Shown: in pieces, positions 5,132-64,000 of the stretch | Layout of the letters: each line of letters begins with the position of its first letter | Position numbering within the stretch: the first letter of the stretch is position 1 | Source of the DNA: Octopus vulgaris | Taxonomy: Eukaryota | Direction: 5' to 3' | Length of the DNA: 64,000 bases | Assembly (NCBI GenBank): GCA_951406725.2 | Contig: OX597836.1 | Location: forward strand, 11,904,001-11,968,000 | Made by a program: the position numbers and the translations under genes | Notes under the pieces: model-generated | The model's input: the letters and a program-made list of their open reading frames with translations, nothing else | Told to the model about the DNA's origin: nothing | Databases searched by the model: none

Positions 5132-5603
5132 AGGGTTAGCGTTAGGGTTAGGTCTAGGGTTAGGGTTAGAGTTAGAGTTAGAGTTAGGGTTAGGGTTAGT
5201 GTTAGGGTTAGGGTTAGAGTTAGGGTTAGGGTTAGGCTTAGGGGTAGGGTTAGGGTTAGCGTTAAGGTTAGGGTTAGGGTTAGGGTCAGGTTTAGCCTTA
5301 GCGTTAGGGTTAGGTTTAGGGTTAGGGTTAGGGATGGCGTTAGGATTAGGGTTAGGGTTAGGGTTAGGGTTAGCGTTAGGGTTAGGGTTAGAGTTAGGGT
5401 TTAGGGTTAGGGATAGGGTTAGGGTTAGCGTTAGGGTTAGGGTTAGGATTAGCGTTAGGGTTAGCGTTAGGGTTAGGGTTAGGGTAAGCGTTAGGGTTAG
5501 GGTTAGAGTTAGGGTTAGGGTTAGGGTTAGGGTTAGGGTTAGCGTTAGGGTTAGGGTTAGGGTTAGCGTTAGGGTTAGTGTTAGGGTTAGGGATAGGGTT
5601 AGC
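5132..5603 (+). repeat. Interstitial telomeric-type (TTAGGG)n array, degenerate
   Basis: ~75 hexamers: TTAGGG with TTAGCG/TTAGAG/ATAGGG variants. Confidence 0.95.
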
Positions 5604-8160: not shown

Positions 8161-8442
8161 AAATATTGTTATATTTCGGAATGGTCATTTTGCCAGTTTA
8201 GCCAATAAAACACACGCACTATATATTTGGTGTTATTTTGCTTCAGTGTTATTTATTTTTTATTTTTTACATTAATCTTAATCTTATTTCGGCCAGAGTT
8301 CTTTCGTCACACTCCTGTGACCGCATCAGTGGTCCTTTGCGTGTGTTTTTATTGACTAAACTGGAGAAATGACCATTCCGAAATACAACAATATCTGTTT
8401 CAACACACGACTCCACATCAAAAATCTTGCACAAAAAATACT
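8161..8442 (-). mobile_element. 282-bp Penelope-like insertion with internal inverted repeat and hammerhead-like motif
   Basis: 8-bp TSD ATTTTTCC (8153-8160 and 8443-8450); inverted repeat 8161-8218 vs 8338-8396; motif at 8291-8335. Confidence 0.7.
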
Positions 8443-9337
8443 ATTTTTCCGAATAGTTTCAAATCTTCCATGAGTAACAAGTGGTTCAGTTTTCTCCTAC
8501 CACTTCCCACATCATACCCCAACTTTGTTTTCTCAGGGGGGGGGGATCATTCCCAGCACGAAGACCATTGGAGACACACTGTCCCCCTGGAAGATACCTC
8601 TCTTGATTTTCACCTTTCCGAAATATAACAATATATGTTTCAACACACGACTTCACATCAAAAATCTTGCACAACAAATACTATTTTTCCGAATAGTTTC
8701 AGGTCTTCCATGAGTAACAAGTGGTTCAGTTTTCTCCTATCACTTCCCACATCATACCCCAACTTTGTTTTCTCAGGGGGGATCATTCCCAGCACGAAGA
8801 CCATTGGAGACACACTGCCCCCCTGGAAGATACCTCTCTTGATTTTCACCTTTCCGAAATAAAACAATATCTATTTCAACACACGACTTCACATCAAAAA
8901 TCTTACACAACAAACATATTTTTCCGAATAGTTTCAGGTCTTCCATGAGTAACATGTGGTTCAGTTTTCTCCTACCACTTCCCACATCATACCGCAACTT
9001 TGTTTTCTCAGAGGGGAGGGGATCATTTCAAGTACGAAGACCATTGGAGACACACTGTCCCCCTTGAAGATACCTCTTATGATTTTCACCTTTCCGAAAT
9101 ACAACAATATCTGTTTCAACACACGACTTCACATCAAAAATCTTGCACAACAAATATATTTTTCCGAATAGTTTCAGGTCTTCCATGAGTAACAAGTGGT
9201 TCAGTTTTCTCCTACCACTTCCCACATCATACCCCAACTTTGTTTTCTCAGGGGGGGGGGATCATTCCCAGCACGAAGACCATTGGAGACACACTGCCCC
9301 CCCGCGGAAGATACCTCCCTTGATTTTTCACCTTTCC
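8376..9337. repeat. Tandem repeat, 4 x ~239 bp, chimeric unit
   Basis: TTCCGAAATA starts at 8376, 8616, 8852 and 9092; LINE sequence resumes after 9337. Confidence 0.93.
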
Positions 9338-9874
9338 TAAAATCTGCTTCCCTGCTGTCAATTCTGTTCTCCATCATTTCATGCTATTCCATAAAAGGCT
9401 TCTCATATTTTCTGCTACTCCATACATTTCCATTGTTTTATTATCCAGCTGTGTGGTATCGTATCGTTATCGTATGCTTTACAATAGCCAACCCATGCCG
9501 TGCTCAGGTTTGCGTGTCTTCTCTTGCAGTTCCTGATAATTAGATTTATCAATTAAGAGCTGATCCTTCGATGCCCACCTCCTCTTTCAGCATCTTTTCT
9601 GTCCAATAGATAGCAGCCCACTGTTTTCCAGGTATCTACACAGTTCACCGGTCAATGCACCTGACATTAGTTTCCACATTAGCGGATATTATTGTTGTTG
9701 TTGTTGTTGTTGTTTTACTGAAAGCAAGTAAAAGGATAAAGACAAAAGACAAACTGTATTCTACCTATCTACCTACCTAATTATCTACCTAATTATCTAT
9801 CTATCTATCTATATATTTAATTATCTGTCCACATATGCAAGCTTCTTACTACACAACTAGGCCTGCGCCTATAT

Positions 9875-10320: not shown

Positions 10321-11242
10321 ATAAATAAAATAAAACATATGCATATACATAAACATATGTACGTACCTACCTCCACATGTACATATACACGCATATATGA
10401 GTACAGAACACCAAAAAGGACGTCGAACACAATGAGAAGCGAAAACATAGACACAAACCAAAGGAACTGGACATTTATTAAAAACAGCAACAAAAAATAG
10501 AATACAGGACAATTAACACAAGGAAAAACCCCTTCTTCAGTCGCTAAAGCTTTCATCTACTCTACGTTTCGAAGGATAAAAGCGAGACGTATCTTCGACA
10601 AGAAAACTTTCCTTCCTGCGAAAAGCAGAGATCTTTTCGCAGAGGGGTAAAAAATAGTAACAACAGGACAGTAACGACAGTGCAAATAGTAAACAGTATA
10701 AGACAGGACAAGGAAAACAAGATAAGAAGGGCTGTTGACGCCGAACGAAAAAAAATATTGCAAACGCAGAATTTTTTATGGACGACGAGCGGAGGAAAAA
10801 GAGTGTCGTCCATTACCTTGAAAGAGCCAGGCGAGAGAGACAGCAGCGGAAGTGACGTCGCGGGTGAACGACGGGAAGGCGGAAGTCACGTTGCGGGTGA
10901 ACGACGGGAAGGGGGGAAGGAGGAGCAAGAGAAAGGGAGAGGAGAAGGGGAATGGCTGCGAGGAAACCATGAAGAATGGAGAGGGGGAGAGAGAGAGTGA
11001 AGAATGAGAGAGAGGAAGAGACAGGTTAAGTAGAGGAAAAGGAAAACAAGGAATGAAGGCTGAGAAAGGGATGGGACAGAAAGGTTAAGAGTGCGCGTGA
11101 GAGTTAATATCAAGAACAAAAACTTGATATAAAGAACAATCTTAATTAAGGGGGTGCGTGCGTTTCATCATATAATATATATTAATATATAAAATAAAAC
11201 ATATGCATATATATAAACATATATGTACGTACCTACCTCTAC

Positions 11243-17949: not shown

Positions 17950-18584
17950 GTCACGCGGTGGGACTGAACCTGGTATCTATGTGGTTGGGAAGCAAAAGTC
18001 GAAGTGGTCACGAGTGGAACCTTTTGCTCGCAAGTGTACTGAGTCATGCAGTGGGATTGAACCTGGTATCTTTGTGGTTGGGAAGCAACAGACGAAGTGG
18101 TCACGAGTGGAACCTTTTGCTCGCAAATGTACTAAGTCACGCAGTGGGATTGAATCTGGTATCTTTGACGAAGTGGTCACGGGTGGAACCTTTTGCTCGC
18201 AAATGTACTGAGTCACACAGTGGGATTGAACCTGGTATCTTTGTGGTTGGGAAGCAACAGACGAAGTGGTCACGGGTGGAACCTTTTGCTCGCAAATGTA
18301 CTGAGTCACGCAGTGGGACTGAACCTGGTGTCTATGTGGTTGGGAAGCAACAGACGAAGTGGTCACGAGTGGAACCTTTTGCTCGCAAATGTACTGAGTC
18401 ACACAGTGGGATTGAACCTGGTATCTTTGTGGTTGGGAAGCAACAGACGAAGTGGTCACGGGTGGAACCTTTTGCTCGCAAATGTACTGAGTCACACAGT
18501 GGGATTGAACCTGGTATCTTTGTGGTTGGGAAGCAACAGACGAAGTGGTCACGAGTGGAACCTTTTGCTCGCAAGTCTACTGAA
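17950..18584. repeat. Minisatellite, ~7 x 93 bp, half derived from SINE A head
   Basis: Unit GTCACGCAGTGGGA(C/T)TGAACCTGG...GCTCGCAAATGTACTGA; one unit shortened by a deletion. Confidence 0.93.
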
Positions 18585-19167
18585 TCAAGAAGTCTTGCAC
18601 ACCATCACCACCACCACCATCAATCACTACCACCATCAATCACCACCTCTACCAACACCACCACCATCACCACCACCGCCGCCGCCTCCGCCGCACCTAT
18701 GACCAGTAAAGAAATGTTCCTATCTCGTCATTTGGAAACGCTTCTTACAAGTTATGTCTGCTGCGGCGGCATCGCCAAATATTTGGAATATTTTCTACAC
18801 CGGGAGTAAATATATTTCTGTGGTTCTTTGCGGTTCTTTGAAAATATTTCTATATATCAGCAATATTTTGTAAGTCCATCGACGGTGTTTGTATATACAT
18901 AACATCGATAAGGAACAAGTAAGATGGAAGACGTATATAAATATATAAAATAAATAAATATATACAATACAGCTACATTGATATGTTAATAAAGTACGTC
19001 CCGCGAGTGGTGATGAAACTGAGAAGACACGCTGGTGTAAACATCTATAGAGATAAATGTGTTTGGTCGTGTGCAGAATAATAGGTGAGTGAGTATATAG
19101 GCGTGTGTGTATCTGTGTGTGTGTGTGTGTGTATGTGTGTGTGTGTGTGCGTGTGCGTACAAATATA

Positions 19168-36884: not shown

Positions 36885-37570
36885 TAATAAATAAGACATG
36901 CATATATACATACGTATATGTACGTACCTACATCTATATGTATATACACATGCATATATGGGTACAGGACACCGAAAAAACGTCGAACACAATGAGAAAC
37001 GAAAACATAAAAACAAAACCAATGAAACGGACATTTTTTCAAACAACGAAAAAACAGAGTACAAGACATACAAGGAAAATTCCCCTTCTTCAGCCGCCCC
37101 TGCTTCGTCTACTCCGTGTTTTGAAGGTAAGGGCGAGACGCGACTTCGTTGAAACAGTCCTTCCCGCAAAGCTAATTAAATAAACTTTTTTGCGGCGGGG
37201 TAAAAGTGGTAACAAGAACAGGACAGTAAAAGCAAAACAAGATAGTAAAATTACAAATAAAAACAGTAAAAGACAGGACAAGGAGAATAACAGTAACAAA
37301 AACGGTAAGGGCTGTTAAGCCTGAACGAAGGAAAAATTATTTCGAACGCTAGGAGAACAACGGCTTAAGAAAGGGGCAGGAAGCCGTCTACACTTGTTGA
37401 AGGTAGTAGTCAGAAAGACAGTGGCCCTCTGGTCACATGTCAGCGACGAGAGGGGTGAGGAGGAGAAAGAGAAAGGGAGAGAAAATAGGGAAGGGTGGTA
37501 GAGAAAACCAGAAAGAATGAAGAATGAGAGAGGGAGAGGGACAGTAAGGTTAAGAGTGCGCATTATTATT
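36885..37570. mobile_element. Second copy of the 10321-11246 element
   Basis: Shared CGTCGAACACAATGAGAA, CCCCTTCTTCAG, AGACAGGACAAGGA, AAGGTTAAGAGTGCGC. Confidence 0.8.
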
Positions 37571-37934
37571 ATTAAGATAAAACTTACTTGGAAGTGGATG
37601 AGTGGCGTTGAAAAAAAAGCCGCAATAATTATGCACAAACCCAATATACTTAAATATAATTCAACGGTCCTTGGACGTTATTTAAATATGCTGATCACTG
37701 GTTGTAATTGATATTTATATACAAAGAGAGAGAGAAGAAAATTGAGAGATTTCATTAGTTGACAGCTGTTTCATAATATCTGTAGTTACATAAGTAACAA
37801 TATAAATATTGATGTGTGCGTATGTGTGCACATTGCTAATTTTTTTGCATATGTAATGTATGTATATATTGTTGTAGTTATATATGTATAAGCATTGTGT
37901 GTGTGAATGTGTGTGTGTATGTGCGTGTGTATAT

Positions 37935-38115
37935 GTGGCTTTGTGTCTGTGTTTGTCTCCTTCAACACTTCACAACCGGTGTTGCTGTGTTTACGGCCTT
38001 GCAAAAAAAGCCCAATAGAACAAGCACTGGGCATCAAAAACAAAAAGTTAAGAACTAAGGGAGATTCGTTCGATTAAAATTCTTCAAGGCGATGTCCAAA
38101 CATGGCTGCAGTCCA
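37935..38115 (+). mobile_element. Diverged SINE family A 3' half
   Basis: TGTGTCTGTGTTTGTC...CATGGCTGCAGTC. Confidence 0.65.
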
Positions 38116-38117
38116 AG

Positions 38118-38402
38118 AGAATTTCGAACCATTATTCAACATTCAGGGATAGTAAAAAACGACATAGTACAGGGCTAAGTAAATTAGTTTGGCGTCTTAA
38201 AGACAACAATATAAATTTCAAGTTAGATTGGTTCACACTGTCTGTATCCTTTCCTTTTGGTAAGGGCAGGAGATTTTGTAACATTTGCAACTCTGAACTC
38301 TTCCATATTCTCTTATCTAAGGTTCCCCTAGTAAACACACTCATAGAAAAATCATACAAATGTAAACACTGGCAGAAACATACTTTCTACTCATATAAAT
38401 GA
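38118..38402 (+). pseudogene. Penelope-like element GIY-YIG endonuclease C-terminal fragment (94 open codons, no start codon)
   Basis: Hand translation RISNHYSTFRDSKKRHSTGLSKLVWRLKDNNINFKLDW...RFCNICNSELFHIL...LVNTLIE..YKCKH...*; fits the recalled PLE pattern NH..F...ST.LSK..W.LK...W...CxxC..E...N...CxH. Confidence 0.82.
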
Positions 38403-38675
38403 TAACGATAGTCACTGTGGTTTGAACAATTAGCTTTACGTCCACCCCACTTCTATAGCGAAATTCTTTCCTAAGCCTTCGAACATTCTTTCAATCAACG
38501 TACCTTTCCCTCTCCACTTGTTTCCTACTTATTATTCCTTTAACCCTTCTCTTCCTACTATCTATCTTTGACGTCAATTCTTCTAACGTTTTTTTTTAAA
38601 AACACTCATTATCGTTTAGTTTACCATGTAGGCAGTCATCGAAATTTTTGTTTGTCTTGTTGTCGAGAGAGGCTC

Positions 38676-38768
38676 CCTTTCTTTCCTGATGAGAAGATTG
38701 CATAATGCACCCTTTATTCCTTTGGAATGAAAACATGTTGTCTTCGAAACATATGTCGAGAGTAAAGG
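38676..38768 (+). ncRNA. Canonical type I hammerhead ribozyme in PLE pseudo-LTR
   Basis: CCTTTCTTTC-CTGATGA-GAAGA..TCTTC-GAAA-CATATG-TC-GAGAG-T-AAAGG; intact core, GUC triplet, predicted cut after 38757. Confidence 0.85.
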
Positions 38769-38804
38769 AATTTTGTTAACATCTTCGTTCGACTCCATTC
38801 TTTC

Positions 38805-38861
<57 letters not shown>

Positions 38862-38964
38862 TATATATATGTATGCATGTATATATATATATATATATAT
38901 ACATATATATGCACCAATATATCTATACACATATACTTACATATATCCGTATGTATATGATATG

Positions 38965-39002
<38 letters not shown>

Positions 39003-50361: not shown

Positions 50362-50405
50362 ACACCTGAAGAAGGCTGGAGGCTATATCAGCCGAAACGT
50401 TGTGT
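50362..50405 (+). ncRNA. Minimal type I hammerhead-like motif within a short repeat (~50310-50483)
   Basis: ACAC-CTGAAGA-A-GGCTG-gaggctatat-CAGCC-GAAA-CG-TT-GTGT. Confidence 0.72.
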
Positions 50406-63415: not shown

Positions 63416-63637
63416 CCTCTGAGCGTCCAATAATACTATATTTGTTCCACGTCCTCGCGTTGTGTTTTTTTTGTGCTTTCATGTTTGGGACAGCTGATGA
63501 AGGGGATTTTTCCTTGTGTAGTTTGTCTTGTACTCTGTTTTTTTCTTTGTAAAAAAAAGGTTCGTTCCATGCTTATTTTTACGTTTTCGTTCTCGTTGAG
63601 TTCTGCGTCTATTTGTGGTGTCCTGTACTCACGTATA

Positions 63638-64000
63638 TCTCTCTATATATAAACGGCAGTTTGTCTGTGCGTGTTTCTGTGTGTCTGTTTTCTCGTACCC
63701 TCACCCTGACCACGGCTTTCAACCGATTCTGATGAAACTTGACACACACACATAGCCCAATGTCATAATTCAAAACTAACGCAGCGAAAATTTTGAAAAG
63801 TTCCCCCAGTTCTGAAAAAATCGATAAATTCGACATGGGGTCGAGAATAAAAAAAAACAAACCACAGACTGTCTAGGGGACGCAACTCAACCTTTTTTTA
63901 CTCTCAAAAAAAAATTTACGATCATTTTTTTTCCATTTTTTTGCTATTTTTTGGCTATAACTCTCTAAAGATGCTTTATAGTTATTTCCCTTACAAACCT
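63638..64000 (+). mobile_element. Non-autonomous Helitron-like element, 5' part
   Basis: TCTATATATAAA start, TGTCTGT.. tract, AACCGATTCTGATGAAACTTG motif typical of invertebrate non-autonomous Helitrons. Confidence 0.7.

Follow-up and report, generated by a model that had tools for sequence, protein, structure and literature searches.

The window, i.e., the whole stretch of 64,000 nucleotides that was analysed (Octopus vulgaris, contig OX597836.1, positions 11,904,001 to 11,968,000 of the forward strand), contains a 5'-truncated copy of a Hydra-like Penelope-like retrotransposon (PLE). This copy lies between an older dispersed repeat and a (TA)n microsatellite, and consists of the end of an endonuclease frame followed by an untranslated region with a type I hammerhead. 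The features are the following (window coordinates; a dot stands for no strand).

37955..38116, dot: older dispersed repeat at the 5' junction, with about 5 nt (38112-38116) common to the PLE
38112..38810, +: 5'-truncated copy of a Hydra-like PLE (near-full matches elsewhere; copies go on 5')
38118..38402, +: C-terminal half of a GIY-YIG endonuclease (R 38118, H 38130, CxxC 38277-38288, E 38295, N 38334, CxH 38361-38369, stop)
38403..38810, +: 3' UTR / pseudo-LTR region, found at both ends of the tandem copies L032 and L068, i.e., also upstream of the ORF
38676..38768, +: type I hammerhead, predicted cut after C38757 (descriptor scan, covariation, folding)
38676-38685 with 38758-38768, +: helix I, 10 bp with a bulged U38763
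38686-38692 (CUGAUGA), 38746-38749 (GAAA) and the GUC ending at C38757, +: hammerhead core (descriptor scan)
38693..38745, +: extended domain II, with a helix (38693-38703 with 38735-38745), an internal loop and a terminal hairpin 38713-38731 (constrained fold)
38749..38756, +: palindromic helix III ACAUAUGU, 8 nt, suited to a two-molecule helix
38808..38810, +: 3' junction with a short TA overlap; copies of the family end at two fixed sites, and this is the first of them (+51 to +60, counted from the cut site)
38808..38978, dot: (TA)n target microsatellite, adjoining the 3' end of the element

Extent and surroundings of the window copy

The genome searched (2.8 Gb, 227 contigs) gave 3,930 candidates, 40 of which were scored; 39 of these are other near-full matches with 95-98% identity. 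All of them begin at window base 38112 (one slightly later), which shifts to 38112 the 5' end first placed at 38118. This common start is the truncation point of the window copy itself, since the other copies extend further: 29 of the 29 fetched copies carry on 5' as shared element sequence for 61 to at least 1,500 nt, where the window has foreign DNA. The older repeat that precedes it has 39 other genomic matches (68-94% identity), most of them stopping at query base 162, i.e., 38116, so that about 5 bases are shared at the joint. At the other side the family match runs to 38810 and is followed by (TA)n, as the original prediction had it. The window copy is one-armed and ends 3' at site 1; in 697 nt, 8 changes are private to it.

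No host gene was found near it in the 27 of 44 complex open frames of the window that were scanned, a search which short exons would escape; these 27 frames gave one repeat match, below cutoff. The window copy is dead, ordinary debris of a known kind of element, one copy among thousands.

Several other features of the window must be noticed. A second and compact type I hammerhead motif, belonging to an unrelated repeat, is found at 50366-50401 (+), with CUGAAGA, a 6-bp helix II, a 2-bp helix III and GUU. An older repeat at 36951-37720 (-) has a decayed hammerhead-like core with a heptamer at 37087-37093 and ends near a TA tract; related pieces (70-77% identity) lie at 10391-11125 and 63487-63638. 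Positions 5132-5602 hold 78 copies of a telomere-type hexamer beside ATT repeats. Two tandem arrays, at 8372-9341 (240-nt unit, 4.1 copies) and 17950-18587 (93-nt unit), contain no hammerhead by descriptor scan.

The endonuclease remnant and its lineage

The frame at 38118-38399 has 94 sense codons, closed by TAA at 38400-38402. The predicted pattern ST.LSK..W.LK / CxxC / CxH is present, as STGLSKLVWRLK, CNIC and CKH. From stop to stop the frame has 116 codons, extends into the flank and is without ATG. The peptide begins at the conserved, invariant catalytic Arg just past YIG, and the GIY and YIG strands are absent from the window; judged from the fold, it would thus not be a working nuclease, since GIY and YIG are both missing. 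The «hidden GIY-YIG ORF» first proposed is therefore to be kept as an endonuclease remnant of GIY-YIG type and given up as an ORF: it is a dead half-domain without GIY, YIG and ATG. It looks hidden because neither Rfam nor Pfam gives anything, i.e., Pfam has no match for the window peptide or the family fragments and whole ORFs gave weak unrelated matches only.

The organisation of the protein is seen in longer copies, which carry, directly upstream of the part equivalent to the window copy, SIYQC...FYIG, an Asn-rich spacer and a reverse transcriptase (RT) with DKT and YRDD. The domain order is thus RT, Asn/Ser-rich linker and C-terminal GIY-YIG endonuclease (EN). The whole endonuclease domain of a longer copy was modelled (pLDDT 73.9), and by structure comparison the predicted model matches I-TevI (Z 9.5, rmsd 2.4, 89 aligned), T4 EndoII (Z 8.3) and UvrC (Z 7.2), unrelated rows having Z values of 4.2 or less. 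Foldseek has no match at E<=0.001 but its best rows are nonetheless I-TevI and EndoII; the best PDB match of the sequence profile of the domain is also T4 EndoII (E 0.022).

The window peptide matches the Hydra-type protein P0004 at E 1e-11 and does not match the Neptune-like L082 (E 0.06). The assignment to a Penelope-like 3' end is confirmed, and the closest clade is Hydra, which was missing from the clades first listed. The general PLE traits are found in the lineage: pseudo-LTRs, partial tandems, inverted 5'-truncated arms and an optional tail. Truncation follows a 5' gradient, with 236 candidates for the ORF start vs. 3,930 for the 3' end. RT and EN are in a single ORF, and sister subfamilies have open frames of 899-904 aa, four of which are 97.0-99.3% alike in DNA; the lineage is young, since such frames are still open and so similar. 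Among the fetched near-full copies of the window copy's own subfamily no unbroken frame was found.

The Hydra clade is defined in Craig et al. (2021, PMC8557442) by a C-terminal EN, DKT, RWK, no CCHH, CxxC and CxH around E and N, a CxCX5C linker, hammerheads and (TA)n targets. As described there, this clade and the present lineage have in common a single ORF with RT then GIY-YIG, DKT, CxxC/CxH, no internal CCHH, (TA)n targets and a type I hammerhead with palindromic helix III near the 3' end, and an octopus member is listed in that paper. In the present proteins, (i) the EN is C-terminal, without N-terminal EN or the CxC arrangement of Naiad; (ii) DKT, the Hydra state in place of DKG, is found in the six proteins out of six that cover the region (L070, L084, L080, L104, L100 and L102); (iii) internal CCHH is absent, and CxxC and CxH flank E and N in 7 of 10, the other three being broken or mutated; (iv) a hammerhead lies near the 3' end and insertion is in (TA)n. 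The marks of Neptune, Nematis, Penelope-Poseidon and Naiad, i.e., CCHH in EN, DKG or DKA, and a CX2-5CxxC linker (Neptune, Nematis, Naiad), are not found.

Two traits differ from those of Hydra. RIRWL takes the place of RWK in the four proteins covering it; P0004 has RWK, and other local families have RWA or RWR. Above all, the CxCX5C linker, present in 9 of the 9 Hydra rows of Fig. S7 (PMC8557442), occurs in none of 10 proteins of the lineage vs. 5 of 5 from three other local Hydra-type families. In its place there is, compared with Hydra as presented in PMC8557442, an Asn/Ser-rich spacer of 149-179 aa ending in a conserved basic helix; the unit has about 3.2 kb and the ORF about 900 aa. Among 5 database proteins the CxCX5C pattern is found in 3, and in the remaining two CxC motifs are visible by eye; upon 150 database matches 82 were testable and 53 of these have a CxC motif, a count too noisy to be relied on since many of the remainder look frameshifted. 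From Hydra-1_Obim (PMC8557442) the lineage differs in protein and hammerhead, at least by eye.

The trees contain local and database homologues only. In the careful tree (14 of 21 rows, no outgroup) the linker-less proteins form one branch (100/100); the quick tree, with a Neptune-like outgroup, places the root among linker-bearing rows, where long branches meet. The simplest reading of these sequences would be a single loss of the linker motif. Since the linker motif is missing, the lineage is filed as a Hydra-like variant, likely derived from Hydra, rather than as a plain Hydra member.

Some observations concern the relatives of the lineage. Five Octopus database proteins (P0002, P0007, P0010, P0011 and P0160) are fragments of it under wrong names, i.e., myb-like, GATA zinc finger-like, dyrk1-like or uncharacterised. 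A tandem and inverted array (L071 and L072, G000:C20:23.33-23.35 Mb) has at least 8 copies of the window copy's family, 87-88% alike to L068, and its proteins are shifted to Gly, Val and Asp, as expected from A-to-G hypermutation. The genome contains at least three further Hydra-type families (L089-L099, L106-L113 and L118); these have CxCX5C linkers, and several of their frames, of 718-842 aa, are open. A Neptune-like PLE fragment (L082:683-2566, -; DKG, CX4CxxC linker, Pfam GIY-YIG and RVT_1) adjoins a Hydra-like fragment.

The hammerhead and its predicted cleavage

The canonical hammerhead that had been predicted is found: intact core, bulged 10-bp helix I, helix II of 11 positions with one U.U mismatch in a domain II of about 53 nt, and palindromic helix III. 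All the defining positions are present (C3-A9, G12-A14, A15.1-U16.1, H17 and three helices). In 20,000 random 697-mers of similar dinucleotide make-up the strict type I descriptor gave no match and the loose one 7. Rfam has no hammerhead in the window at its gathering score (0 matches) and none among the 65 matches at E<=10. Genome-wide, 2,641 matches were found with a relaxed core pattern and none with its reversed control. The window copy had been taken as the best candidate for an active ribozyme; it is no special candidate, since 46 copies share its 72-nt core identically.

Conservation of the fold was evaluated on 20 natural copies, hand-picked across subfamilies and thus related. Of 600 cells, 88% are paired vs. 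34-49% in slid controls. Both sides have changed in 30 cells, a value reached by none of 500 shuffles; counted by pairs, 10 show such double changes, and 40 shuffles upon 500 attain as many, in these related rows. Helix II has 5 of its 11 pairs altered on both sides, helix III is paired as palindrome in 100% of cells with one pair compensated in 3 of the 20, and distal helix I is poorly kept. Since pairing, covariation and palindrome are kept across subfamilies, it is likely, on these sequence comparisons, that the fold is under selection in source elements. A short hairpin within domain II (38699-38709) was rejected; it is broken in several subfamilies and the 11-position helix II is for that reason preferred.

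A long domain II is also found in two other local Hydra-type families, a third having a compact one; in File S2 (PMC8557442) loop II does not exceed 10 nt in any Hydra row. Type I, the location in the pseudo-LTR and the palindromic helix III region are shared with the metazoan PLE hammerheads of Cervera and de la Pena (2014, PMC4209133), for which dimer action and circular templates were proposed. Compared with the minimal motifs given there, the present one is larger (10-bp helix I, 11-position helix II plus internal loop and hairpin, 8-nt palindrome). It is also of the PLE type found in animal non-LTR retrozymes (bioRxiv 10.64898/2026.07.22.740005; PMC7229834) but, unlike in the retrozymes presented there, it is part of a protein-coding element and not of a tandem non-coding unit.

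Would this hammerhead, as first claimed, cut any plus-strand transcript crossing it? A fast stand-alone ribozyme of this kind, acting as regulatory element on host transcripts, would have for it the perfect core, the long helices I and II, a predicted pairing probability of 0.89-0.97 for helix I in a tight construct and the precedent of a fungal PLE hammerhead that cuts well as monomer (PMC4209133). On the contrary, in cis helix III closes just 2 bp with a predicted probability of 0.01, and the active type I fold has a predicted cost of 3.3, 4.3 and 7.2 kcal/mol in contexts of 104, 141 and 209 nt, helices I and II having disappeared from the predicted fold in the longest one. The palindrome is suited to a dimer (predicted self-duplex of -7.0 kcal/mol), and no second core of the window copy's family was found in the window by descriptor scan. 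In addition, the animal PLE hammerheads that were tested are weak or need a protein: published ones are described as weak and dimer-dependent (PMC4209133), and that of a lizard as protein-assisted, insertion in vitro working without it (PMC11167929). The 912 copies that were copied through the site and the frames scanned for a host gene also speak against it. The claim is thus unsupported, and a fast stand-alone ribozyme is improbable. The hammerhead is rather predicted to cut weakly or slowly, as dimer or helped by the protein of the element.

A related reading gives to one core two cut sites: cleavage after C38664, at a GUC lying upstream (type III), and at the GUC lying downstream (type I) would free a 93-nt RNA able to circularise. 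The type III register does exist by descriptor scan (8-bp helix I, 3-bp helix III), and the two GUC triplets lie in a directly repeated nonamer. Nevertheless, its predicted cost is 11 kcal/mol vs. 4-7 for type I, its pairing (68% of cells) is no better than in slid controls, U16.1 pairs in 9 copies of 20, the upstream site is absent in other subfamilies, and no back-joint was found in assembled contigs of runs guessed to be RNA. Energy and conservation both fail, and this type III reading was rejected as very unlikely.

In the assembled contigs of runs guessed to be RNA, which cannot show RNA ends, neither piled ends nor a back-joint were seen, a result that counts neither for nor against cleavage. 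Contig depth climbs sharply over the hammerhead, and does so too in a very large run of unknown kind. This rise fits many short 3' ends of several subfamilies and is not read as expression. A fixed-length non-autonomous unit (retrozyme or SINE-like) instead of a truncated autonomous element, to which the single start base of the top matches and this jump in coverage could point, is very improbable and is refuted for the window copy, since the shared start is its own truncation point and other copies, with scattered 5' ends, reach into the ORF beyond that point by 61 to at least 1,500 nt.

End sites, two-armed insertions and proposed mechanism

Copies end 3' at two sites past the cut position, site 1 at +51 to +60 and site 2 at about +205 to +215, i.e., about 155 nt apart. 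Ends at these sites were counted in two sets, the first 30 core matches with one duplicate locus dropped (25 of 27) and the 30 best matches (31 of 33); those running into (TA)4 or more are 19 of 27 and 29 of 33, respectively. At site 2, 768 forward-strand matches stop in (TA)5 vs. 14 that read on. The 5' ends are scattered. As for the cut site, 912 copies read through it and 3 start there with foreign flank, a count made without control at neighbouring positions and by a pattern that misses some flanks.

Twenty loci with back-to-back arms (21 pairs) were picked from the core-match and read-through lists. In each of the 17 pairs that could be scored, the two arms end at different sites, one at +49 to +69 and the other at +172 to +224, the two sites being already known before the scoring; 4 pairs were unscorable. 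About 600 nt from a two-armed insertion there is an open frame (L031:804-1346, +) which we take to resemble the last helices of a seven-transmembrane receptor.

The two end sites are the most TA-like 10-mers (8 of 10) of the 608-nt untranslated region. They are not set by base pairing alone, since 10-mers just as TA-like occur inside the ORF and since copies of a sister subfamily end at these two positions too, where their TA match is weaker. It is likely that their position is set by a protein-RNA complex, TA pairing helping. The consensus fold of the tail between the sites is weak (covariation term +1.38).

A comparable situation is Poseidon_Ac (PAc) of Anolis (Frangieh et al. 2024, PMC11167929), where RT starts at two internal sites, by which a «tail» is defined, targets are AT-rich and the template runs through the hammerhead. 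The PAc start sites are described as without homology to the target and not strand-specific. PAc is of another clade, and differs from the present lineage, where the sites are about 155 nt apart, TA-like and followed by (TA)n, and where the arms use different sites.

The window copy is thus, with high confidence, a dead 5'-truncated Hydra-like PLE insertion, which target-primed reverse transcription at a TA repeat likely produced, its pseudo-LTR hammerhead being conserved and predicted to be slow, dimeric or protein-helped. The steps would be the following: (i) the endonuclease would nick (TA)n; (ii) RT would start inside the RNA, at site 1 or site 2, aided by a few bases of TA pairing; (iii) where both DNA strands prime, each from a different site, a two-armed insertion would result; (iv) in the window copy, one arm would have begun at site 1, run for about 700 nt and joined the older repeat at a 5-nt overlap. 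Both end sites being past the cut, the template would be an RNA unbroken across the ribozyme, either uncut or made circular by re-joining. The hammerhead would be kept by selection on active source elements, where it may split tandem transcripts into units, and the window copy would merely inherit it.

For the lineage as a whole a broader proposal can be made, tentatively and with more doubt than assurance: a young, Hydra-derived octopus lineage may have exchanged the linker zinc finger, a part proposed to read microsatellites, for a helix free of Cys and yet go on hitting (TA)n, targeting being ensured by the endonuclease core and by TA pairing at two fixed RNA start sites, one per DNA strand, on a circular template provided by a long-armed, protein-assisted hammerhead. 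In the portions of the literature at hand, including PMC3088659 and PMC13282606 (on the repeats of O. vulgaris), neither the linker loss nor the window copy's family was found described; a consensus may exist in the supplements of PMC13282606, in Repbase or in Dfam.

Three things are modestly new at the level of the family: the linker Cys motif is lost but insertion in (TA)n goes on, domain II is long, and the two arms follow the one-arm-per-site rule. The linker Cys motif was linked to (TA)n targeting by Craig et al. (PMC8557442); a linker-less lineage still inserting in (TA)n is a natural control, and linker-bearing families share the same genome. Hammerheads with a domain II of 50-60 nt escape Rfam and short-loop descriptors, and would for this reason be undercounted in animal genomes. 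As for the one-arm-per-site rule, it supports, on the side of the genome, twin priming at two sites inside the RNA, and carries over to another clade what came from a single in vitro PLE study.
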